Below are positions 10,729-22,443 of a stretch of DNA of 28,049 bases, in pieces. A program made the translations under genes and the position numbers. Source of the stretch: a virus (taxonomy: Duplodnaviria > Heunggongvirae > Uroviricota > Caudoviricetes); the IMG/VR virus record IMGVR_UViG_3300050821_002507; one strand, given 5' to 3'. The notes beneath the pieces were generated by a model. That model ran no database searches and was not told the DNA's origin. It saw only the letters and a program-made list of their open reading frames with translations. The first letter of the stretch is position 1. The number at the start of each line of letters is the position of its first letter.

Positions 10729-11390
10729 TAGCCGATCCCCGATTGCAACATACGGAACCTAACCTGACCGGTCCCGGAGTTAATCAAGAGACGGATCATG
10801 GAGATTGGCTCCATATAGGAACCGTCAATATTCGCAGACTGAGCGACCACTAGAGGATGATTGAACGCCAGCGGTGAAGTCACCCCAGCCAGAAGTTGAT
10901 TCGGATCGTCGTAGGTATGCTGAACGGTGAAATTCGCCGCCCCAGAGACTAACTCAACCGCAAATCCTATATTGATATCCTGAACGTGCCAGTTCACCTG
11001 TTGCCACGAAGATGACCCAAATCCGTTAGTCCCCGCAATAACCGTCGAGGCGACTGATGCGCTTGGGGTGATACTTGTTACCGTGACGAAGTCCAAATTT
11101 GACTGCGCGGCACCACCATTCGACCCGACAAACGTGTCAGTAATCACGCTACCAGTAGAGTTGGTCCCGACCACGACCCAATTGATGCCGCTGTCATCCC
11201 CGCCAGATGTAAGAATTACCCTTCGGCCTACAGCAGTGTTGGTCGATGACTTGGTATCTATCGTAGCAACACCAGACGTAACGGCAGACCCATTAAGAGT
11301 CAGTTTCGCCGTAGCCGGGCTCTGACTCAAAGCAATGTTGTTCGAGCTAGAGGCCGCCATCGTCTTGTTGAAAACAATCGGGATACCCAT
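10728..11390 (-). CDS. Two-domain beta-rich virion structural protein
   Basis: 220 aa, Ser/Thr/Gly-rich. RRVILTSGGDDSGI...VVVGT...ITDTFVG N-domain; C-domain is paralogous to 5028..5363. No signal peptide. Confidence 0.65.
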   Translation of the reverse strand: MGIPIVFNKTMAASSSNNIALSQSPATAKLTLNGSAVTSGVATIDTKSSTNTAVGRRVILTSGGDDSGINWVVVGTNSTGSVITDTFVGSNGGAAQSNLDFVTVTSITPSASVASTVIAGTNGFGSSSWQQVNWHVQDINIGFAVELVSGAANFTVQHTYDDPNQLLAGVTSPLAFNHPLVVAQSANIDGSYMEPISMIRLLINSGTGQVRFRMLQSGIG

Positions 11391-11960: not shown

Positions 11961-13262
11961 TTAGGTTACGGTGACGCCAGCGGCAAGCGGAACGTAGCGA
12001 ATGAAGTGCTGCCACGTTCCAGTTGTAGAACCAACTGCAACGGTTATTGTGATCGTCCCCACTGGAACGAGAACAGACGATGGAATTCCGAAGAACCCAG
12101 GTCCGTTGGCATTATAAACAGCCGCCTGAGCAACGCCGGCCGCGCTGCTTCCAACTGCGGTAATAGTGGCACCAGCCGCCGCGTTAGCGATGGAAGCCGA
12201 CGCAGTCGCGATAGCAGTGGATGTTCCGATCGTCGGAACTGAGTTGTATGCTACCGTCGAAGCAGTCGCGCCGTTTGCCGTGATACAGAGCGAGAAAAGA
12301 CTCTCAACCCGAATCGGTCCGCCGGCAACCGTGAACAGAGTGTTTCCAGACACCATAACAGCAGCGGTCTTAACCGGACCAAAGGCCGGAAGGGCAGCAC
12401 TCGCCGCTGGCGTAAACCCAGGGCCTACGGCTACCGCACTACCACCGCTGATCTGAGAACCAGCGGAGCCGTCAAAAACATCAAGAGACCACGTCGATCC
12501 GCCGACCGTATCAACAACGTCCTTGGAGCCGTTCGTGACTCCAGAAACGTATGTATATCCGGTAACGTTGACATCCGTGCTTGCCGTGGTGACAAACTCA
12601 ACCACAGCCGTAGTAAGAATACCGTAGTACAGAATATTGATCTGTCCGTTGTCACACCCGACAAGTCGGATAGCATTGACACCGTGAGACCCAGCCGTGA
12701 ACCCAAAGTATACGAGATTCACGTTCAGTCGATCCGCTGCGGCAGTTGTCAAAACGGCACGGAGAGCTTCCTTGTTAGAAGCTCCGTCGTGCCACTCAAC
12801 CGGAAGACCTGGGAGACCGAAGGTGCAATCCGCCGCAGAAATCACAAACGGCGACACGATCTGGTCGATGTTGCAAACACCGACGATATTTGCCAGAGTT
12901 ACGCCAGCAGAAGCGATAGCGAACGTGGCAGCAGTAGAGGTCGAAAACGTAAATGTCGGGCGAGTAGAACCTTCGCCCTGGCCGATAATATAGAGCCCCG
13001 GCTTTCCGGTCGTCGTGATTCCAGCCGCCGCAGAAACCGTCTCCGCATGGCCCGGCATGACCACGATGACATCGCCAGACGCAGAGGCTGTGATGGCCGT
13101 CTGGAGTCCAGCAAACGGCAGCGAGGCATCATTGCCAGGGTTGCCGTTCGATCCCGTGACAGAACTGACAAACCAGTAGGTCCCAGACGTGATCGGAAGC
13201 CCGTTGCCGATCTGCGGAACACCGAAGCTCGTTACCCCAGAGGGGAAATTGGTGTAGACCAC
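11961..13262 (-). CDS. Head fibre/spike-like protein with a right-handed beta-helix (pectin-lyase-like) region
   Basis: GTG start with AGGAG RBS. N-terminal M..TNFP.G..SFG.P; GSNGNPG.....PFA.LQTAI.....GDVIVVMPG is a typical beta-helix N-cap. First structural gene downstream of the capsid gene. Confidence 0.65.
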   Translation of the reverse strand: MVYTNFPSGVTSFGVPQIGNGLPITSGTYWFVSSVTGSNGNPGNDASLPFAGLQTAITASASGDVIVVMPGHAETVSAAAGITTTGKPGLYIIGQGEGSTRPTFTFSTSTAATFAIASAGVTLANIVGVCNIDQIVSPFVISAADCTFGLPGLPVEWHDGASNKEALRAVLTTAAADRLNVNLVYFGFTAGSHGVNAIRLVGCDNGQINILYYGILTTAVVEFVTTASTDVNVTGYTYVSGVTNGSKDVVDTVGGSTWSLDVFDGSAGSQISGGSAVAVGPGFTPAASAALPAFGPVKTAAVMVSGNTLFTVAGGPIRVESLFSLCITANGATASTVAYNSVPTIGTSTAIATASASIANAAAGATITAVGSSAAGVAQAAVYNANGPGFFGIPSSVLVPVGTITITVAVGSTTGTWQHFIRYVPLAAGVTVT

Positions 13263-13273
13263 TTTTTAGCTCC

Positions 13274-14272
13274 TCATGTCGCCGTCGCCGGCTCCGTTGT
13301 GGCCATAGACGCCACATATTGCGTAATCAGACTGACATTCCACAGAGTATGCGGTATGTCATTTTCGTCTATCAGAAGAATGCACTTGTCACAATCTTGG
13401 ATATTTACTGTCCTGCCGTTAATGGCCGGTATTTTCGTATCTAATTCCTCATTGTACGAGGTCAGTTTTCCGAAGTTCTTTAACTCGCTAAGCAGCCTTG
13501 CAACCCTAGCCTCTGCTATCGTACTATACTGACCGAGATCGATAGTCTCTTTTTCTATGTGTATTCTTGCTCGGAACCATCCACCGTGTGGATATACGCC
13601 TTGATATCCGGTCCTACTTCTTCTGGTGGCGCTCCTAGAATTGTGGCTATTCTCACTCTTTGTGGCGTCTCGTAGATTCAGCCACCTATTGTCATTTCTA
13701 ACCCTATTGATGTGATCTATCTCAAATTCAGGCCAATCTCCCGTCATATAAAACCAAGCCAGGATATGCTCTAGGTACTTTTTGTAGTCGATCCCTATGC
13801 TGCGATAGCCCTTGCCGTGAGTGGTGCCGGCTCTATCGCCTATATTAGCCACCGAAGAGGCCACCCTCCACGTAAACCAACCCGTGTCAGGCTCGTAGTA
13901 AAGAAGCTCCTTCAGCCGACCCAGCGTCAGGGCCGTGGACTTGATATCTTCTGGATCCTTATCATGAACCAGAATATTGGAGACCCTATTATCGGTCTTA
14001 TTCCCATTCAGGTACTTTATGCGTCCTTTGGGCCACTCGCCATTGACATAAAGCAGCGCCAGTAGACCAGAGTTGTAATTGACCGCGTCTACCGAGATCA
14101 TGACGTAGCCAAGTGAACTTATCCTGCCGGCACCAACCTTACCGTGCTTACGATCTTCCGAGGTCCACGTTCTGGCCTGCTGGCGTCTCGTAAAGATGCC
14201 GAGTTCGGCATCGTAGTGAAACAGTTCCTTCAACCTATCTTGTGTCGGCCTTGGCTTCGTATTCGTATCCAT
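13274..14272 (-). CDS. Free-standing HNH homing endonuclease with a duplicated (first copy degenerate) HNH module and an AP2 domain
   Basis: Two copies of RLKEL.HY...G.FT...G...I......L.....GEWP. The second has EIDHINRVRNDNRWLNL, the first has RIKYLNGNKTDNRVSNI. AP2-like SRTGYQGVY...FRARI...IDLGQY follows. Confidence 0.9.
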   Translation of the reverse strand: MDTNTKPRPTQDRLKELFHYDAELGIFTRRQQARTWTSEDRKHGKVGAGRISSLGYVMISVDAVNYNSGLLALLYVNGEWPKGRIKYLNGNKTDNRVSNILVHDKDPEDIKSTALTLGRLKELLYYEPDTGWFTWRVASSVANIGDRAGTTHGKGYRSIGIDYKKYLEHILAWFYMTGDWPEFEIDHINRVRNDNRWLNLRDATKSENSHNSRSATRRSRTGYQGVYPHGGWFRARIHIEKETIDLGQYSTIAEARVARLLSELKNFGKLTSYNEELDTKIPAINGRTVNIQDCDKCILLIDENDIPHTLWNVSLITQYVASMATTEPATAT

Positions 14273-14337: not shown

Positions 14338-15264
14338 TTAGCTGGTCGGTGCGGAGCCCCAGATGCTACGGGGATCGTTGTAATTAAAGCTATATCTCTC
14401 CCATCCCTTCACCATGAGATTGTCCGTGGTAAAATCGACCTGCATGTCGATCTCGAACGGCTCGCGCTCCAGGTAGAGGAGGCCCGGCTGGTCGGTCTTG
14501 AGGTACCACGGAAATGCGGAGGTGAAGAACACGTCCTTCACGTACTCGCTGATGCCGCCGGCAACAGTTGGGAGGACGTTGATGTCGTTGTTCGCCGTAC
14601 CTGGGCGAAGCTCTGTCCTGAGAAGGCGGAGGGCGGTCGGCTCGTTGTTCGGGTGAATAACGAGCGTCTTTCCCGTGGCCATCATGCGGAGGCCGGCGTT
14701 GTCGTAGAAGCCGGTCTGGATCGAGATCATCCCGTTCAGCAGGGATGCTTCGTTCAGGTCTACGTCTGTCGTAGGACGGTTTGCCCACGTAGTCGGACCG
14801 GATCCGCCAGGAGGCAGTGGGTGGGCAGTGCTCAGGAGAGCAACGCCGTCGCCGCCGACTGTCGTGTCGTAGGTCGTGCTGTTGTTGAACACGGCCGCAG
14901 CGTAGATTTCCTTGGTCTGGGCGAAAGAACGCTGGAGACCAAGGTTTGACGGGCGGAACTGCGCCTTGTAGAGGTTGTCCGCGATCGTGTTGCGGGTGAT
15001 AGCGTAACCCAAACCGATTCCAGTGTGAAGCTGGTTGTAGACCCACGCCTCACCGGAGGAGTTGTCGAAGATCGTCTGACCACCGTCCGACTTAAGCTGG
15101 GCGAGTGGCAGGAACCGCATGGAAGCAGTACGCTCCTGCGCCATCTCGGACTTGCCTTGGTCGAACAGCTTTGGCCAGATCGACGGCCACTGCTTGTATT
15201 CACCTGTGACACCACGGAGACCCGGCAGCAGGAGGTCCCGAATGGCTGCGACGTTAATTGCCAT
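14338..15264 (-). CDS. Major capsid protein (HK97-fold, Mu gpT-like)
   Basis: 308 aa. LLLPGL, W..LF, YAITRNTIADNLY, LLST.HP, L.E.SL, LVIHP.N, W(F/Y).KTD..GL and RYSF...DPR..WGS motifs. Located downstream of the scaffold and GroES genes. Confidence 0.88.
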   Translation of the reverse strand: MAINVAAIRDLLLPGLRGVTGEYKQWPSIWPKLFDQGKSEMAQERTASMRFLPLAQLKSDGGQTIFDNSSGEAWVYNQLHTGIGLGYAITRNTIADNLYKAQFRPSNLGLQRSFAQTKEIYAAAVFNNSTTYDTTVGGDGVALLSTAHPLPPGGSGPTTWANRPTTDVDLNEASLLNGMISIQTGFYDNAGLRMMATGKTLVIHPNNEPTALRLLRTELRPGTANNDINVLPTVAGGISEYVKDVFFTSAFPWYLKTDQPGLLYLEREPFEIDMQVDFTTDNLMVKGWERYSFNYNDPRSIWGSAPTS

Positions 15265-16129: not shown

Positions 16130-16543
16130 CAGTTATTTTTAATACGGTATACCAGATAGTTATCGCGAGACCATAGTTCCCCCCTTTCTGCCTTCAGTCT
16201 GGACTTAACCTAGACTGAAGCCCCTAGTGAGGGGGAGACGGGAGACAACTTTCCCATCCGCATACTTGGTGCCCTTCGCCGGTAAACCGGACAAGTGCCA
16301 GTAGGATTTTTTCGGCTCCTACCCATGGCATCCCTCATCTAGCGGGACACCATGCTTCAACCGTTCCAGGGGGTTGCCCTGTCTGAAGGCCCAGGTCGCA
16401 AGGGGAGAGCGTTGCCTGGAATTGTTTTGGTTCGGGCAAATTGCCAGCGGCCCGCAACACCGTATGCACCTATTGACCTATAGGCACGGGCGGTGGGGCA
16501 TAACCGGCTCAGTCGGACGGGTGTCCGGGCTAGGGGACTTTTA

Positions 16544-16576
16544 GGGAACTATGCACTTGACATAGTTATAAATCGG
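16544..16576 (+). repeat. IRL of the outer element; contains the -35 box of the transposase promoter
   Basis: GGGAACTATGCACTTGACATAGTTATAAATCGG is the exact reverse complement of 22401-22433. TTGACA (16557-62)-N17-CATATT. Confidence 0.95.
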
Positions 16577-16610
16577 GTGCATATTGGCGGCCATAGAGAG
16601 GTTGCCCGCC

Positions 16611-17516
16611 ATGAATGTAGATCTGACAGACCCGATTTTTCACGATGAAAACAAGGCTCGCGAGCACCTTGAGGCGCAGCGCTGGCCCGATGGCCCGTTC
16701 TGCCCGCATTGCGGCGAGGTCGATAACATTTGCCGATTACATGGCAAGTCCCACCGCCCCGGCCTGTTCCAGTGCAACTCATGCCTTCAGGCATTTACGG
16801 TTATGGTCGGCTCGGTTTTCGAGTCGTCGCATATCCCGCTGACCAAGTGGGTACTGGCCTTTCACCTGATGGCCGCGAGCAAGAAGGGTATGAGTGCCCT
16901 ACAGCTACAGCGGATGCTCGGCCTTGGCTCCTACCGGTCGGCTTGGTTCATGTGCCACCGTATCCGTGAGGCCATGAAGCCGGCCAAGCCAAGCCCGTTG
17001 GGTGGCCCTAAGAAGGTTGTCGAGGCAGACGAGACCTTCATCGGCGGCAAAGCCAAGAACCGCGCCTACGCCAAGAAGCCCCCAAAGAAAGAGGCGGTCT
17101 TTGCGTTGGTCGAGCGGGACGGCGAAAGCCGCTCATTCCATGTCGCCAACGTGAAGGCAAAGACCTTGCGCGAAGCCATCGTCAAGACGGCAGACCGTAA
17201 GTCATTCCTGATGACCGACGAATCGCCGTCCTACGAAACGGTTGGCGCAGAGTTTGCCCTTCACGCCACGGTCAACCATTCGCAGAATGAATACGTGCGC
17301 GCCGACTGGCACACGAACACGGTGGAAAGCCGTTTCGCTCTGATGAAGCGCGCCGTCTATGGGACGCACCATTCAGTCAGTCAGGCCCATCTGCACCGCT
17401 ATTTAGTCGAATGGGACTACAAGTGGAACACCCGCAAGATGAAGGATGGGGAACGTGCCGCGCTTGCCGTCTATGGTGCCGGTGGCAAGCGTCTCACGTA
17501 CCGCAATCCTAACTGA
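16611..17516 (+). CDS. IS1595-family (ISXO2-like) DDE transposase
   Basis: Zn ribbon CPHCG..CNSC, HTH region, VEADET, MTDE, NTVESRF and HLHRYL.E motifs. AGAGG RBS before ATG 16611. Confidence 0.97.
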   Translation: MNVDLTDPIFHDENKAREHLEAQRWPDGPFCPHCGEVDNICRLHGKSHRPGLFQCNSCLQAFTVMVGSVFESSHIPLTKWVLAFHLMAASKKGMSALQLQRMLGLGSYRSAWFMCHRIREAMKPAKPSPLGGPKKVVEADETFIGGKAKNRAYAKKPPKKEAVFALVERDGESRSFHVANVKAKTLREAIVKTADRKSFLMTDESPSYETVGAEFALHATVNHSQNEYVRADWHTNTVESRFALMKRAVYGTHHSVSQAHLHRYLVEWDYKWNTRKMKDGERAALAVYGAGGKRLTYRNPN

Positions 17517-17597
17517 GCCCAAGACAAATCAAGCAGAAGGCAAAGCGCTTTCTGCGGTGGAGAAAACGCAAGGGTCGGGCATGACGCTCGGCCCTTG
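17513..17597 (+). other. Basic mini-ORF (CTG start, LSPRQIKQKAKRFLRWRKRKGRA) whose stop lies in the loop of a hairpin (17569-17597)
   Basis: CTGA overlaps the transposase stop. The peptide and hairpin are conserved after the second transposase. Confidence 0.45.
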
Positions 17598-17642
17598 TTT
17601 CGTTATGCTAAGTCTATAAGTTGGCTTCGGAGTTGCATAAAA

Positions 17643-17957
17643 ATGACGATCAAGACTTATGTAGCGCTCGATGATGGGACGACAGTTTTGGTCGAAACCA
17701 TCGAGCACGAAGGAGACCTCTGGCTTGTGCCAAAATGGATCGCCACGTCATTCCCAAACATGCACAAGCCAGCCCGAATGATTCGGATGCCGAAAGATCG
17801 GCTCCAGGACCTCGGCCATGATTTTCTCGCAAGCGGGATTCATGCACATAAACTAGACGGTCAAGTGTCCAAAGTTTTGTTGGACGTGGCCAACCCGTTG
17901 CAATCAGACCAGCCGTTCGACGTTCTAGAGGCTCCGGAGTTATTGATTCGTCGATGA
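17643..17957 (+). CDS. Passenger hypothetical protein (TIEHEGDLWLVP motif)
   Basis: GGAG upstream of ATG 17643; 104 aa; first gene after the hairpin. Confidence 0.65.
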   Translation: MTIKTYVALDDGTTVLVETIEHEGDLWLVPKWIATSFPNMHKPARMIRMPKDRLQDLGHDFLASGIHAHKLDGQVSKVLLDVANPLQSDQPFDVLEAPELLIRR

Positions 17958-17999
17958 ATTGTTGATTTCGAATCACTCTGTGTACCATTTCTTCCTTCC

Positions 18000-18231
18000 T
18001 CAATTCCGAAAACCTCTAATTGCCCATCCCAAAGCCGAACCGAACGCCAGCACAAGCACGGGAGGGATCAGGGCAATTTTGATGGCTGTTTGAATGGCGA
18101 TCTTTCTAGAGCCGAGAAGTTCAAGTTGTAAGTCAGATATAATCGTGCCCTGCGGCGGGTCAGGGGGCGGTAGGCTTAAAACCGCTACCGTACCAACCGC
18201 ACCAATCCAAAGTACGGAGAGGACAATCCAC
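18000..18231 (-). pseudogene. 3' part of a two-TM membrane protein gene interrupted by the inner IS (5' part at 21326-21362)
   Basis: Removing the inner element and one TSD restores an 86-aa ORF MRFARGFLRLWIVLSVLWIGAV...GSALGWAIRGFRN, paralogous to 20038..20340. Confidence 0.9.
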
Positions 18232-18273
18232 CCCAATTATATCGTTGACATCACAAGCTCTATATGCTGTATT
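18232..18273 (+). promoter_or_regulatory. IRL of the inner element with transposase promoter TTGACA-N17-TGTATT
   Basis: -35 at 18245-50 inside the IR; -10 at 18268-73. Confidence 0.7.
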
Positions 18274-18300
18274 GAGGCCATCACACAGGGATCGATGGTC

Positions 18301-19248
18301 ATGGACACGTTTTCAGCCCCGCATTTCCACAATGACGAAGCTGCCAGAGCCTATCTGGAAGCCCTGCGTTGGCCCGATGGTCCGGTCTGCCCGCATTGTG
18401 GCTCGGTCAATCACGCCTATGTGATTAATCCTGCCGGCACCTATCGCTGCGCAGAAAAGGAATGCCGGGGGAACTTCTCGGTCACAATGAATTCTCCCAT
18501 GGAGCGCAGCCATATCGCTCTGCACAAGTGGGTCCAAGCATTCCATCTAATGGCGTCCAGCAAGAAAGGCGTCTCAGCCCACCAATTGCACCGGACTCTG
18601 GAAATCACGTATCGCTCGGCATGGTTCATGGCGCACCGCATTCGCGAGTGTATGCGATCGGGCGGTCTCGCCCCGATGGGTGGCGATGGCCAGATCGTTG
18701 AGGCCGATGAAACATATTATGGCCCGGTCGATAACCCGCGTACCGAAACGACCATCGGTCGGCCGTTCACGAAGCGTGGCAAAACCGGTCCAGCCAATAA
18801 GCGCCCGATCCTCGCGCTGGTCGAGCGCGGCGGCAAGGTTCGCACGTTCCATGTGCCGGTTGCCGATCAGAAAACGGTCGAGAAGATCGTCACGGAAAAC
18901 ATCGCTCGCGAGTCACGGCTGCACACCGATGAAAGCCGCCTCTATTTCAACGCGGCCGATCATTTTGCCGCGCACAAGACCGTGAAGCACACCGCGAAGG
19001 AATACGCGCGGCGCGAAGACGGAGAAAACATCCACTGCAATTCTGCGGAAGGTTACTTCTCGATTTTCAAGCGCGGCATGAAGGGCATCTATCAGCACTG
19101 CGACGAAAAGCATTTACACAGATATTTGTCGGAATTCGATTTCCGCTACAATCACCGAGTCCGGCTCGGATACGACGATGGGGAACGTGCAGCCATGGCG
19201 GTCAAGAACGCGACCGGCAAGCGGCTGACGTACCGGCTCACTGACTAA
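18301..19248 (+). CDS. IS1595-family (ISXO2-like) DDE transposase
   Basis: CPHCG Zn ribbon, VEADETY, LHTDE, NSAEGYF and HLHRYLSEFDFRYN. Start at 18301 or 18295; the ORF-track start 18094 lies outside the IR. Confidence 0.97.
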   Translation: MDTFSAPHFHNDEAARAYLEALRWPDGPVCPHCGSVNHAYVINPAGTYRCAEKECRGNFSVTMNSPMERSHIALHKWVQAFHLMASSKKGVSAHQLHRTLEITYRSAWFMAHRIRECMRSGGLAPMGGDGQIVEADETYYGPVDNPRTETTIGRPFTKRGKTGPANKRPILALVERGGKVRTFHVPVADQKTVEKIVTENIARESRLHTDESRLYFNAADHFAAHKTVKHTAKEYARREDGENIHCNSAEGYFSIFKRGMKGIYQHCDEKHLHRYLSEFDFRYNHRVRLGYDDGERAAMAVKNATGKRLTYRLTD

Positions 19249-19344
19249 GCCTGTTTTCAGGCATAAGGCCGCGCGGTTTCTGCGCTGGCGCAAGAAACTC
19301 CCCAAGAAGAAACGCAAGGGCCGAGCATGACGCTCGGCCCTTGC
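19241..19344 (+). other. Basic mini-ORF (CTG start, LTKPVFRHKAARFLRWRKKLPKKKRKGRA) ending in a 13-bp hairpin (19314-19344)
   Basis: Perfect stem GCAAGGGCCGAGC-atgac-GCTCGGCCCTTGC; homologous to 17513-17597. Confidence 0.45.
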
Positions 19345-19383
19345 TTCGCTATCCTGGCGGTGCCAACCAACTAGGAGCGAGTC

Positions 19384-19590
19384 ATGGCTAAACAGATTGC
19401 GCCCGCCTACGCCCTTTCTCTCTGCGTCGTTCTCGCTCTTCATAAAACTGATCCCAAATTTCTTGCACTCTTACGGTCCACCGTGGCGGATTTCCAGAAG
19501 ACTCAGCCCAAGGACGGGATAACATGGGAGACTCTTGAGCTTTTTTTGCGCGCCCTATACGACTCTGAGATTTTTGTAAAATCGTCTTAG
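19384..19590 (+). CDS. Passenger hypothetical protein, 68 aa
   Basis: AGGAG RBS 7 nt upstream; same slot as 17643..17957 in the outer element. Confidence 0.6.
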   Translation: MAKQIAPAYALSLCVVLALHKTDPKFLALLRSTVADFQKTQPKDGITWETLELFLRALYDSEIFVKSS

Positions 19591-19618
19591 TTTCTTTTGT
19601 TGCCATTGGTTTTCCCCG

Positions 19619-20041
19619 TTAATCCGCTACCTTGGTCCACCGAACTTCAATAGACTTGATTTTTAAATCGTCGGCCGGATTGAGCAGAGTCAGGCCGGTA
19701 GTGTCGAACTCTTTTTGCTCTTTTTGCCAAGCAATTGCGGGAACGATGTACCTCGCTGCGTTATATGCGATCACGGTTGCCTGAAAGTGGCACCCTTTGT
19801 CGCCAAGTGGTGCATGTCCCCAATCACAGTCTTTCGGTTTGATACCAATGTTAACTTGGTCGAGGCTGACTTTGTATTTCGCGGAATACCAGATGGAATC
19901 CATCCATGTGTCGCCGGGGCCTAGCCAAACAGTAGCCACTAAGACCGCGACAAAAATCCAGCCCCCGTACAAGCCGAGCGTACCAATAAATGCAAAAAAC
20001 GCCCTCACGTTGGCTCCAAACTCATCCAGTCGTGCATTCAC
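19619..20041 (-). CDS. Passenger membrane-anchored protein with a periplasmic Cys pair (KPKDCDWGHAPLGDKGCH)
   Basis: N-terminal hydrophobic segment; GTGA coupling to 20038..20340. Confidence 0.7.
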   Translation of the reverse strand: MNARLDEFGANVRAFFAFIGTLGLYGGWIFVAVLVATVWLGPGDTWMDSIWYSAKYKVSLDQVNIGIKPKDCDWGHAPLGDKGCHFQATVIAYNAARYIVPAIAWQKEQKEFDTTGLTLLNPADDLKIKSIEVRWTKVAD

Positions 20042-20340
20042 CGAAAACCTCTAAGCGCCCACCCCAATGCCGATCCTATCATCAACAATAGGACAGGGGG
20101 GATAAGAGCAATCTCGGTAGCGGTTTGAATGGCTCGCTGTCGATTAGCGGCGGCTTCTATGACCCATGGTGCGTCTGGTAACGAATCAGACTGCTGTTGA
20201 GCGCTTGGTTGCGGATTAAATTTCGCCCAAGGGTCAGCCGCCGGAAAATTCAATGTTGCCACGGCAATCACCGCACCGATCCATAACACAGAAAGGACAA
20301 GCCACAGTCGGAGAAATCCGCGTGCGATTCGCAATGCCAT
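20038..20340 (-). CDS. Passenger two-TM membrane protein (intact paralogue of the gene the element interrupts)
   Basis: RGFLRLWLVLSVLWIGAV...AIQTA..IALIPPVL.L..GSALGWA.RGFR. Confidence 0.8.
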   Translation of the reverse strand: MALRIARGFLRLWLVLSVLWIGAVIAVATLNFPAADPWAKFNPQPSAQQQSDSLPDAPWVIEAAANRQRAIQTATEIALIPPVLLLMIGSALGWALRGFR

Positions 20341-20349
20341 CGCTGGTCC

Positions 20350-20511
20350 CTATCCCTTTTTACTCTTGGGACTCTTGACCGGCTTTCCTCTAGGCTTGCC
20401 GAGCTTCATTTCGGCCTGCGGCTTGGGCGGCATCTTGAACGCCGCTCGCAATGCCGCAGCCGCGCGCCGTTCGGTTTCTTCTCTTGTGAATTGGTCGAGG
20501 GGCTTGGCCAT
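20350..20511 (-). CDS. Unannotated 53-aa basic micro-protein, EETxRR family (copy A)
   Basis: Manual translation MAKPLDQFTREETERRAAAALRAAFKMPPKPQAEMKLGKPRGKPVKSPKSKKG; paralogous to 21359..21514. Confidence 0.75.
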   Translation of the reverse strand: MAKPLDQFTREETERRAAAALRAAFKMPPKPQAEMKLGKPRGKPVKSPKSKKG

Positions 20512-21124
20512 GGCTGCACCACTAAGCGAGGAGGATGAATACGATCAACAGTTCAGAAACATTTGCTTCAATATGGGAATTGCTCTTGTAGAATGGCAGC
20601 GTCTTGAAGACCAGCATTACGGGCTTTTCCGACATTTGACTGGCATCCAGCGACAAGACCTTGCTTCAATTGTGTACCATAGCACGGAGAGCTTTGACGC
20701 GCGACGTGTAATGGTGGGTCACCTAGCGCGAGCTTTCATCGACCAATTGAACGACAAACAGCAGGCGAAAGCTCGTAGGCAAATAGCTGCTATTGATAAG
20801 GGGCTGGCAGATGCAAGCAAAAATCGCAATAAAATAGCCCACCATGCAATGGAATATAAAATCTCTTCCATGAAAGAGAACGATGACGGCAGCATTACAA
20901 TCGAATACGGGCCTCCTAGGCTGCAGCAATCATCATCCAATATATTGAGCCGGATAGAGGGGCGCGGTCCGGACCAGAAGGGGCACGACCTGGGGGTAAC
21001 CGAACTACAGACATACAGAGATGAATTTAAAAAGGTGCAGGCGCAAATTATCGCCTTCAATCACTGGCTGGCTTTAGTGACGCCTCCGCAGCCGCTGCAA
21101 TCAGGCGCTCCACAATCGACATAG
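20510..21124 (+). CDS. Passenger helical protein with HEPN-type Rx4H motif (RNKIAH)
   Basis: GAGGGG RBS 7 nt before ATG 20510. MGIAL.EWQ.LE helix and RNKIAH motif; 204 aa. Confidence 0.65.
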   Translation: MAAPLSEEDEYDQQFRNICFNMGIALVEWQRLEDQHYGLFRHLTGIQRQDLASIVYHSTESFDARRVMVGHLARAFIDQLNDKQQAKARRQIAAIDKGLADASKNRNKIAHHAMEYKISSMKENDDGSITIEYGPPRLQQSSSNILSRIEGRGPDQKGHDLGVTELQTYRDEFKKVQAQIIAFNHWLALVTPPQPLQSGAPQST

Positions 21125-21284
21125 CCCCCCATGGGCCGCCAATCCAAACGCGGCCATAGAAATCCGCCTCGTCCATCAACCTCTGAACCATCCTGCCAAT
21201 AGCAGCGTCGTCGGCCAGCAGATCGGCCCATTTCTGGTCAGGCTGGACTACTCCTGAATTCTGTAGCGTCGGCCTGTCGGTCAC
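21057..21284 (-). CDS. Small passenger protein adjacent to IRR (MTDRP...)
   Basis: AGGAG RBS before GTG 21284; convergent overlap with the HEPN gene; same slot as 22101..22292. Confidence 0.55.
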   Translation of the reverse strand: MTDRPTLQNSGVVQPDQKWADLLADDAAIGRMVQRLMDEADFYGRVWIGGPWGAMSIVERLIAAAAEASLKPASD

Positions 21285-21294
21285 ATACTACTCC

Positions 21295-21325
21295 TAGAGC
21301 TTGTGATGTCAACGATATAATTGGG
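21295..21325 (-). repeat. IRR of the inner element
   Basis: Exact reverse complement of 18232-18262. Confidence 0.95.
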
Positions 21326-21362
21326 CAATCCACAATCTGAGAAATCCGCGAGCGAACCTCAC
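21326..21362 (-). pseudogene. 5' part of the interrupted membrane protein gene
   Basis: GTG 21362 overlaps the TGA of 21359..21514 (GTGA). Reads MRFARGFLRLWI, then enters IRR and stops. Confidence 0.85.
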
Positions 21363-21514
21363 GGGTTGGCCTTGCGTGGCTCGGGACTCTTCTTCTTTTT
21401 CCCGGTAGGCTTATGCGGCTTTGGCGGCGTGTTCAGCGCAACGCGCAAGGCGGCGTTGGCGCGGCGTTTGGTCTCTTCGGTGCTGTAGAAGTCGGTCGGT
21501 TTGTTTTTGCTCAT
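21359..21514 (-). CDS. Unannotated 51-aa basic micro-protein, EETxRR family (copy B)
   Basis: Manual translation MSKNKPTDFYSTEETKRRANAALRVALNTPPKPHKPTGKKKKSPEPRKANP. Extended -10 (TGcTATCAT) 7 nt before the ATG suggests a leaderless mRNA. Confidence 0.75.
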   Translation of the reverse strand: MSKNKPTDFYSTEETKRRANAALRVALNTPPKPHKPTGKKKKSPEPRKANP

Positions 21515-21529
21515 GCAGCGGATGATAGC

Positions 21530-22147
21530 ATGACGGTGGTATCAAAAAAAGCGCGAAAGGAAGCTCTGGCTCGCGCCAAGGAGCGCCTAAATGCCCGGAG
21601 CTTCGGGAATGATTCGTGGCAGGTGATACTGCAATACACCGGAGATTCCTCGAATCTTCAAACATCTGATAGAGCAACCGCGCTTGTACTGGGTGCCATC
21701 TTAGAGCAAGGGCTTGAACTTGCGATTCTTTCGCATTGCGTTCTCGGGTGGAACACGCCGGAATCGGAGTCGGAACAGAGAAAGCTATTTGGTGGAGGTG
21801 AAGACGCCCCTATAAATTTCGCCGTAAAAATTAGGCTTGCCTATGCGCTCGGCGTATATGGGCCCAACACTAGAGATGATTTGGACCTGATGAGGCATAT
21901 CCGCAACCTTTTTGCCCACGATAGGGGCCACCTGACTTTCAATGATGAAATAGCATCAAAACTTTGTGTCCAAATAAAATGGATCGATGCGTTTCCGTGG
22001 GGAGGCGTTACTGGAAATGCGCCAGCGTCTCCCCGAGATCAGTACGTAGAAACAGTCAAGCACTTTTTCCCATTTCTAACGGTGGGAGTTGGCAGGCCAA
22101 TCAAATACCTGGATTCTCCTTTTGCTCTTTCTGTAATGTATGCCTAG
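21530..22147 (+). CDS. Passenger MtlR-like HEPN-superfamily protein (RNLFAH)
   Basis: SDRATALVLGAILE..LE, FAVKIRLAYALG and DLDLMRHIRNLFAH match the MtlR/HEPN pattern. Confidence 0.75.
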   Translation: MTVVSKKARKEALARAKERLNARSFGNDSWQVILQYTGDSSNLQTSDRATALVLGAILEQGLELAILSHCVLGWNTPESESEQRKLFGGGEDAPINFAVKIRLAYALGVYGPNTRDDLDLMRHIRNLFAHDRGHLTFNDEIASKLCVQIKWIDAFPWGGVTGNAPASPRDQYVETVKHFFPFLTVGVGRPIKYLDSPFALSVMYA

Positions 22148-22292
22148 CCCTCCACATCGCTTCAAAAGCAACCAACGCGCACACTCCTGGGTCGTCGGTA
22201 CATCCGATTGCAAGGAGAGCCCGTTCGCCGGCCTCAATCATTTCGTCCGTGACTTCGATTTCAGCAGAACGTGTGTCGGGTGCTTGTTCCAT
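22101..22292 (-). CDS. Small passenger protein adjacent to IRR (EIEVTDEMIEAG motif)
   Basis: 63 aa. Candidate promoter TTGCTT (22321-26)-N17-TATAGG (22298-303) just upstream. Convergent overlap with the HEPN gene. Confidence 0.6.
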   Translation of the reverse strand: MEQAPDTRSAEIEVTDEMIEAGERALLAIGCTDDPGVCALVAFEAMWRARHTLQKEQKENPGI

Positions 22293-22400
22293 CGCTCCCT
22301 ATAACACAAGTTATTCTACAAAGCAAATTCTCGCGAGTAATTAAGCTCCCGTATGGACCGGGAGTTAGGCCGATGGCAAGCCAACAACTTGCAATCTAGG

Positions 22401-22433
22401 CCGATTTATAACTATGTCAAGTGCATAGTTCCC
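22401..22433 (-). repeat. IRR of the outer element
   Basis: Exact reverse complement of 16544-16576; followed by the TSD GACTTTTA. Confidence 0.95.
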
Positions 22434-22443
22434 GACTTTTACG

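Follow-up and report, generated by a model that had tools for sequence, protein, structure and literature searches.

Analysis of a 28,049-nt stretch of tailed-phage DNA (IMG/VR record IMGVR_UViG_3300050821_002507, hereafter the window) shows two nested insertion sequence (IS) elements of the IS1595 family, each with passenger genes between its inverted repeats (IRs). Across the IS1595 clade to which they belong, these passengers include a three-gene module: a gene for a basic micro-protein, a divergent gene for a protein with a HEPN-type motif, and a small acidic open reading frame (ORF) that is convergent with the HEPN-motif gene and lies near the right IR (IRR). Between sister elements, cassettes are replaced between conserved anchors. 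On balance, we favor the reading that this is a transposon-borne module of toxin or defence type, in which a putative HEPN RNase effector is restrained by small proteins, by the transcription layout, or by both.

The outer element (16544–22433) and the inner element (18232–21325) were delimited by repeat search, which gave terminal arms of 33 nt (16544–16576 and 22401–22433) and 31 nt (18232–18262 and 21295–21325), respectively, each pair 100% complementary. Reading of the flanks confirmed the target-site duplications (TSDs) claimed in the preliminary description, each of 8 bp, with GACTTTTA at 16536–16543 and 22434–22441 for the outer element, and CAATCCAC at 18224–18231 and 21326–21333 for the inner element. 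The insertion point of the inner element is about codon 10 of an outer gene for a protein with two transmembrane (TM) segments. Excision of 18232–21333 in silico made this gene a single open frame again, and the restored N-terminus (…RFARGFLRLW…) parallels that of the inner two-TM protein. Without its insert the outer element is 2788 bp long, and the inner element is 3094 bp. The outer element occupies an intergenic stretch within the minus-strand virion-gene region of the phage; the product of 14338–15264 (308 aa) matches the major head protein family, and further PHROG families were matched on either side of the element, in agreement with the head-gene setting described earlier. The inner element transposed into the cargo of the outer element, which had earlier entered the phage head-gene region. 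The features of the two elements are listed below, with isoelectric points given as pI.

16536–16543 (no strand): left TSD of the outer element (GACTTTTA); identical copy at 22434–22441
16544–16576 (+): outer left IR (IRL), 33 nt, from repeat search; promoter-like −35 inside
16584–17516 (+): outer transposase, IS1595, zinc ribbon and DDE domain, from Pfam
17517–17598 (+): basic peptide KQKAKRFLRWRK (other frame, startless), then a hairpin with a 13-bp stem at 17568–17598
17643–17957 (+): outer free-cargo gene, 104 aa, matching no known family
18000–18231 (−): C-terminal part of the outer two-TM protein gene, split by the inner element; about 8 N-terminal codons at 21334–21355
18232–21325 (+): inner element, 3094 bp, perfect 31-nt IRs, TSD CAATCCAC
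18295–19248 (+): inner transposase, IS1595 family, from Pfam
19249–19344 (+): frame-shifted basic peptide (…ARFLRWRKK…) and hairpin at 19314–19344
19384–19590 (+): inner free-cargo ORF, 68 aa, matching no family
19619–20041 (−): inner 140-aa protein with an N-terminal TM helix; start overlaps the stop of the two-TM gene
20038–20340 (−): inner two-TM protein, 100 aa, 10 nt downstream of the micro-protein gene
20350–20511 (−): inner micro-protein, 53 aa, pI 10.8, TPPKPH family
20510–21124 (+): inner HEPN-motif protein, 204 aa, RNKIAH; CATG start overlap at 20509–20512
21057–21284 (−): inner small acidic ORF, 75 aa, pI 4.5; convergent with the HEPN-motif gene, starting just inside the promoter-like site of the IRR
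21359–21514 (−): outer micro-protein, 51 aa, pI 10.6
21530–22147 (+): outer HEPN-motif protein, 205 aa, RNLFAH, MtlR/YggD-like model
22101–22292 (−): outer small acidic protein, 63 aa, pI 4.4, EMIEAG family
22401–22433 (−): outer IRR, from repeat search, with an inward promoter-like site
22434–22441 (no strand): right TSD of the outer element

The parallel gene order that had been described for the two elements holds apart from the inner 140-aa gene (19619–20041, −), which that description omitted and which makes the orders not identical. This gene is in operon-like contact with the inner two-TM gene. The true starts of the HEPN-motif genes are not those of the long upstream ORFs; they lie at 21530, backed by about 50 relatives of 205 aa, and 20510, backed by an almost invariant first methionine and by end-to-end alignments.

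Both transposases match the Pfam families DDE_Tnp_IS1595 (PF12762, E = 1.1e-33 and 1.6e-32, above cut-off) and Zn_ribbon_IS1595 (PF12760, E = 3.5e-11 and 2.1e-15), the latter as an N-terminal zinc ribbon, which is a trait of all IS1595 groups except IS1016 (PMC8101967). An IS1595/ISXO2-type DDE domain, a zinc ribbon, terminal IRs and an 8-bp TSD are thus all present, as in members of the IS1595 family. The two transposases share only 44% identity, indicating two distinct elements and not copies of each other. A transporter IS (tIS) is an IS-like element with passenger genes within its IRs, a known class that includes IS1595 members (10.1101/2021.05.26.445724). Passenger genes lie between the IRs of both window elements. 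Their ends (GGGAACTAT… and CCCAATTAT…) can be set beside the end consensus of the delimited elements of the clade, GGsrAtTATATACTTGAC. The ISNwi1 group of ISfinder we take to be defined by passengers, a length of 1.75–4.75 kb, 8-bp direct repeats and ends of the form ggnnatTAT, and the window elements fit this description. They are different tIS of one IS1595 clade, with ends that are ISNwi1-like under that assumed definition. Within the IRL, TTGACA at positions 14–19 forms the −35 of an inward promoter-like site (16557–16585, +) directed toward the outer transposase gene. Inward promoter-like sites are also present in both IRRs (22420–22393, −, and 21312–21285, −), directed toward the acidic small ORFs; that of the outer IRR reads TTGACA-16-TAGATT.

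Relatives were collected by a scan based on transposase alignment, using one genome per species, which gave at least 479 relatives, and 80 loci (L handles below) were kept. Elements were delimited from a conserved core in the IRs, with TTGAC at position 14, and only where an 8-bp TSD was perfect. In this way 44 elements of 1857–3513 bp were delimited in other genomes, making a set of 46 with the two of the window. Cargo was mapped by all-against-all ORF clustering, and hidden Markov models (HMMs) were built from the clusters. A wider family with structured cargo, as proposed in the preliminary description, therefore exists, with IRs, transposase and micro-protein as its constant parts among the 46 elements. 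The two outcomes named there as contrary to the proposal, a random passenger order, and a pair of recent copies with no wider family, were not what we found. Closest to the outer transposase is that of a viral contig, L091 (88% aa identity). The L091 element is minimal, with transposase, micro-protein gene, HEPN-motif gene and EMIEAG-type acidic ORF; its cargo differs from that of the outer element, and its similarity to the outer element ends at position 998.

The micro-protein is about 50 aa long, with a core …L(N)TPPKPH…, a Lys/Arg-rich tail and a median pI of 10.5, and is present in 43 of the 46 elements. The outer and inner micro-proteins are 60% identical over 30 aa. In 67 of the 80 loci the gene follows the transposase at a distance of up to 3 kb, and contig ends truncate at least 4 of the other 13 loci. 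A codon alignment of 40 micro-proteins gave entropies of 1.48, 1.34 and 1.75 at codon positions 1, 2 and 3, with the contrast strongest in the TPPKPH core; because third positions vary most, we regard the micro-protein as coding. The candidate explanation that this region is the N-terminus of a plus-strand gene was rejected, given the codon-position pattern and the discontinuous frames in the outer element and many relatives. A collection of 5.8 billion proteins contained eight called homologues of the micro-protein. Two of these eight were inspected, and both are flanked by an IS1595 transposase and, on the opposite side, by a divergent ORF of 200–255 aa. Gene callers mostly miss the micro-protein, so annotation pipelines under-report the module.

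The close tie of the micro-protein to the element bears on a rival explanation, in which the micro-protein and HEPN-motif protein are accessory parts or controls of transposition instead of a conflict module. The micro-protein could, for instance, bind DNA at the ends, and the HEPN-motif protein could cleave or bind the transposase mRNA. The micro-protein was seen only with IS1595 transposases, and its identity is higher among close transposases (0.43 vs 0.27). Even minimal elements carry the module, the gap between transposase and micro-protein gene being 0 in L016, L018, L029 and L044, and 27 nt in L067, and no bare IS of about 1.1 kb was found among the 44 delimited elements. A Mantel test of micro-protein against transposase gave a weak signal (rho = 0.09, p = 0.076), and we make no claim of co-evolution. 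Distant IS1595 members (35–38% identity) are without the micro-protein, and the HEPN partner is swapped between sisters and occurs in families that live outside IS elements without the micro-protein, a turnover typical of conflict genes and not of a mechanistic core. We therefore consider the accessory explanation unlikely, and retain the toxin- or defence-type reading.

The layout of the module is compact. The HEPN-slot gene is divergent from the micro-protein gene. Both start codons were located in 28 elements; in about 11 of these they share a CATG, with one ATG on each strand. Most non-overlapping pairs are within 20 nt of each other, and the starts of the outer pair are 15 nt apart (21514 and 21530). 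The absence of intergenic space at CATG means that the promoter and leader of each gene lie inside the other gene, or that the mRNAs are leaderless. From this layout, the micro-protein and HEPN-motif genes are probably regulated together. The micro-protein is on the plus strand in six elements (L001, L003, L004, L012, L064 and L071); of these, L001, L004 and L012 also have an inverted HEPN-slot gene, and L001 and L003 an inverted EMIEAG ORF, so that the module visibly inverts as a unit in four elements (L001, L003, L004 and L012).

The last-slot ORF is convergent with the HEPN-motif gene, adjoins the IRR and encodes 50–95 aa. Its median pI is 5.2, whereas minus-strand ORFs of similar size outside this slot have a median of 10.0 (p = 6e-10). 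An EMIEAG family with the pattern (I/V)T-x-EM(I/V)EAG … (I/V)(F/Y)xxM accounts for 17 of the 46 elements, including the outer one; the inner acidic ORF is outside it. The terminal small ORFs, treated earlier as one slot, agree in place and acidic character and are not homologous to each other, with only the outer ORF belonging to the EMIEAG family. Complex prediction for the outer HEPN-motif and acidic proteins gave a score of 0.02, with controls not run, which speaks neither for nor against an interaction.

Proteins of the HEPN slot are 170–270 aa long and highly divergent. The outer and inner proteins show no BLASTP similarity to each other, in line with the preliminary description, and both contain RNxxxH (RNLFAH and RNKIAH). 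Among 34 slot proteins, mean identity is 12%, and the sole shared feature is a nearly invariant R with an H five residues later; both residues are invariant within the outer family and within the inner family. The pattern R[NHDQ]xxxH was present in 29 of 43 divergent ORFs, mostly as RNxxxH. The slot is exchangeable, as had been suggested, in that its gene is replaced between sisters; its content is not arbitrary, being nearly always an R-[NHD]-x3-H protein.

An AlphaFold model of the outer protein, built with 36 sequences, had a pLDDT of 84.5. Its best Foldseek matches were MtlR (6kcr, 3brj) and YggD (3c8g), with probability 1.0 and TM-scores of 0.54 (query) and 0.66 (target). The next matches were HepS of prophage Gifsy-1 (9oij), the HepT toxins (5yep, 6m6w) and Csm6. 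E-values were 2e-3 or weaker even for the best of these matches, MtlR and YggD included. The protein scored below the gathering threshold of the Pfam MtlR family (PF05068, 20.8 vs 25.2 bits) and below that of NCBIfam MltR (19.4 vs 149), and some homologues are annotated MltR. Judging from the model, the outer protein appears to be MtlR-like in fold only and not a member of the MtlR family. The structural matches, the weak Pfam and NCBIfam matches and the MltR annotations all speak for a second alternative, namely that HEPN-motif proteins act as MtlR-like regulators or adaptors lacking catalytic activity, and that they are ordinary passengers without a part in toxicity or defence. This would be hard to square with the extreme diversification and cassette turnover, which are not expected of a housekeeping regulator, or with the fact that across the 34 otherwise unrelated slot proteins only the R and H of an RNase-type motif are conserved. 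PIN/VapC genes also occupy the same position in relatives, and we judge the regulator alternative quite improbable.

The PIN/VapC genes were found in L142:757–3310 and L143:3492–5971, on plasmids of Methylobacterium oryzae and Roseomonas marmotae, whose transposases are 44% identical to the outer one. Here the transposase gene is followed, in the same direction, by genes for a hypothetical protein of 266–288 aa, a PIN/VapC-type protein and a protein of 61–62 aa. Given this cargo in distant relatives, RNase-toxin folds are a recurring cargo theme. The 61–62-aa protein, which combines a helix with a KPK-rich basic tail, is reminiscent of the micro-protein, yet was missed by the micro-protein HMM.

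The model of the inner protein (pLDDT 94) is a helical bundle with a beta-hairpin, and in searches with Foldseek and VIA-align it matched generic helical bundles, with HepS (Z 7.7), AF0298 (2hsb, Z 7.6) and the HEPN domain of sacsin (Z 6.8) among the matches. Its assignment as a putative HEPN protein rests mainly on the invariant RN-x3-H. A check of slot genes with PADLOC (PADLOC-DB 2.0), suggested in the preliminary description, gave weak matches to the HEPN part of CARF_HEPN/Csx1 models (E = 0.0017–0.025; 0.0017 for the inner protein), no significant system, and no matches for the small proteins. Beyond such weak HEPN-type matches, the known defence models, Pfam and NCBIfam recognized nothing in the cargo, and Pfam, PADLOC, NCBIfam and ESM Atlas gave no family for the micro-proteins, acidic ORFs, two-TM proteins, 140-aa protein or first-slot genes.

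Turnover of the cassettes was evident from comparisons of sister elements by blastn. Their transposase DNA is 66–82% identical, and IRL and transposase align, as does a stretch of about 70–120 nt in the micro-protein gene in 6 of 15 pairs, and 23–67 nt at the IRR (or IR arms, opposite strand) in about half of the 15 pairs. The free slot, the HEPN-motif gene and the acidic ORF align nowhere in these comparisons. On the transposase tree, 7 HEPN sequence clusters (27 labelled rows) require 15 changes; the sisters L042/L044, L067/L078 and L012/L004 have different HEPN clusters, and transposase identity and HEPN identity are uncorrelated (rho = −0.03). The HEPN families also occur outside IS elements, in Bradyrhizobium loci for the outer family and in integrase-linked islands for the inner family, and the micro-protein is absent beside these homologues. 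The cassettes are thus drawn from a general pool, and it is in this sense that the earlier idea of a conserved scaffold with exchangeable slots is right. Exchange probably took place by homologous recombination between related IS copies.

Between the transposase and micro-protein genes of the delimited elements lies a free-cargo slot of 0–1.2 kb filled by unrelated genes. Its first ORFs differ between the outer (104 aa) and inner (68 aa) elements, and the inner slot also holds the gene for the 140-aa membrane-anchored protein. Free- or last-slot ORFs at L035:1926–2198, L076:9257–9541 and L026:8096–8575 resemble other small mobile-element proteins; these include ORFs starting MAVFVLSYDL… and MPLFLISYDV…, and one of 160 aa.

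The preliminary description had assigned both elements a six-slot grammar that also included the two-TM protein and the hairpin. Paralogy of the constant slots within the window was corroborated: in addition to the transposases (44%) and micro-proteins (60%/30 aa), the two-TM proteins are 53% identical, and the hairpins (17568–17598 and 19314–19344; 13-bp stems, z −4.5 and −5.0) sit in a 46-nt stretch that is 89% identical between the elements. The grammar itself did not extend to the relatives. The two-TM protein had no match across the 80 related loci, the hairpin sequence pattern was absent from all 141 loci scanned, and the first variable gene is not general. Hairpins after the transposase stop are frequent in relatives, with sequence not conserved, and the two-TM protein has 57 homologues (58 matches including the window's own) in other mobile elements without IS1595.

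The two-TM gene and the hairpin are private to the two nested elements, which suggests exchange between co-resident copies or a common local source. These results also touch a third alternative, that the parallel gene order as a whole arose by chance or by recent exchange of co-resident elements whose passengers are otherwise unstructured. The restriction of the two-TM gene and hairpin sequence to these two elements fits such local exchange. For the module it is contradicted by the recurrence of the same order in most of the 44 independently delimited elements and in viral contigs, and we consider this alternative highly improbable, standing solely for the two-TM and hairpin slots.

According to the toxin- or defence-type reading, the HEPN-motif protein would be a predicted toxin of RNase type or an effector of abortive infection; restraint would come from one or both small proteins, from head-to-head and convergent transcription, or from both sources. 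The module might stabilize the element by addiction, or give its carrier, here a phage or prophage, a trait for defence or competition. The transposase end, the micro-protein gene and the IRR would serve as homology anchors, between which the HEPN and acidic cassette and the free cargo could be swapped by recombination.

Several observations weigh against this reading. No antitoxin fold or family was found for either small protein, and the gene order is unlike that of a type II toxin–antitoxin (TA) operon, the pairs being divergent or convergent and not co-transcribed. In about one-third of the elements the exact motif is missing, or ORF calling yielded no clear slot gene. The nearest structures to the outer protein, MtlR and YggD, are regulators and not known toxins, the HEPN matches of the inner protein do not exceed those of generic helical bundles, and profile–profile comparison (hhalign) of the two HEPN families aligns the motif only. 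An inward IRR promoter was rejected as a general trait, the promoter-like site being found in the IRL of 25 of the 46 elements and in the IRR of only 7.

A more specific reading, which we offer tentatively, is that the whole clade is a minimal self-mobile cassette platform, also spread by phages. In it, the gene for the 50-aa basic protein would be joined at its start codon (CATG) to that of an interchangeable HEPN RNase with an acidic partner, and the micro-protein or the overlapping divergent transcription would gate a putative HEPN toxin swapped by recombination between the anchors. Conserved flanks around variable genes are the logic of integrons and of P2/P4-type prophage defence hotspots. 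Here too, conserved anchors flank hypervariable conflict-type genes, and sisters differ by whole-cassette replacement; unlike those platforms, the clade has no integrase or attC-type site, and the platform itself is a transposon of 2–3 kb. If the platform reading is true, addiction or abortive-infection modules carried by transposons would have a regulatory architecture of a new kind.

Comparison with known systems places the module among, yet apart from, several of them. The window elements (2.8 and 3.1 kb) share with other tIS of IS1595 the IS-like structure, passengers inside the IRs, a transposase with zinc ribbon and DDE domain, and an 8-bp TSD; there the passengers are, in the literature examined, treated as unspecified cargo, whereas here they comprise a fixed module of micro-protein, HEPN-motif protein and acidic ORF with cassette turnover. 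Transposition modules of the Tn3 family, the nearest concept in the published record, carry integral TA pairs, including the HEPN–MNT pair TnSod9 (Lima-Mendez et al. 2020, PMC7157771). The likeness lies in RNase-type toxin genes that sit beside transposition genes and not with the ordinary passengers, and in several independent acquisitions of different toxin families. However, Tn3 TA pairs are co-transcribed type II systems with known antitoxin folds, whereas the IS1595 module has no MNT or DNA-binding antitoxin, has divergent and convergent genes, and has as its constant partner a 50-aa basic protein of no known family. Known HEPN proteins (MtlR/YggD, HepS, HepT, Csm6/Csx1) resemble the slot proteins in the R-x4-H motif and perhaps, for the outer protein, in the helical HEPN-type fold of its model, but sequence identity is 12–20%, and here there is neither an MNT partner nor a CARF domain. 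In the literature examined, with the founding paper on IS1595 passengers and ISfinder set aside, a module with CATG-overlapping starts and cassette turnover is undescribed.

Just beyond the transposase stop of both window elements, a basic peptide (…LTKPK..KQKAKRFLRWRKRK…) is open without a start codon (17513–17567 and 19246–19313); 10 of the 44 related elements have it as well. Of these 12 elements, 10, among them the inner element, have it in the +1 frame, the outer element has it in the other shifted frame, and L038 has it in frame. The peptide could extend the transposase at its C-terminus through recoding, or could be what remains of an in-frame tail after decay.

In the phage DNA, an HNH endonuclease gene (13274–14272, −; phrog_99, E = 3.5e-73) lies immediately downstream of the major head protein gene. 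At 16156–16181, 362 bp upstream of the outer element, a sequence resembles the outer IRR end (…CATAGTTCCC) and is 73% complementary to the IRL; it may be what is left of a solo IR, or else a site resembling a target. A megablast search with the whole element against phages and plasmids gave no match. The sequencing runs listed for this DNA include no RNA run. Among contigs of the four DNA runs, which are short and of low depth, none spans an unoccupied insertion site or an outer element that lacks the inner insertion. Two metagenome runs of another study (X3 and X4) contain contigs about 97–99% identical to window positions 17557–18081, which cover the first cargo gene and two-TM gene, so the cargo combination of the outer element also exists elsewhere; none of these contigs extends to the inner insertion site.

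Two further arrangements were seen among the relatives. At L039:9667–12615, a second IR copy (12596–12615) and a second micro-protein homologue (11038–11199, +) lie beside a complete element, and may represent a transposase-less derivative lying tail-to-tail. In two metagenome contigs, L088:2889–4144 and L090:1677–2693, related elements adjoin the same 64-aa tautomerase gene; either related genomes share one insertion here, or the site is a preferred one.

IS elements are usually taken to carry a transposase only, and IS1595 passengers have been treated as incidental. Our results show that a widespread alphaproteobacterial IS1595 clade travels with a structured module whose cassette turns over between sisters, and the overlapping CATG starts offer a directly testable regulatory layout. 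If the HEPN-motif proteins are active RNases, these elements of 2–3 kb would be among the smallest self-mobile vehicles of toxin or defence genes, would supply HEPN diversity and would offer phages a way to gain such genes.

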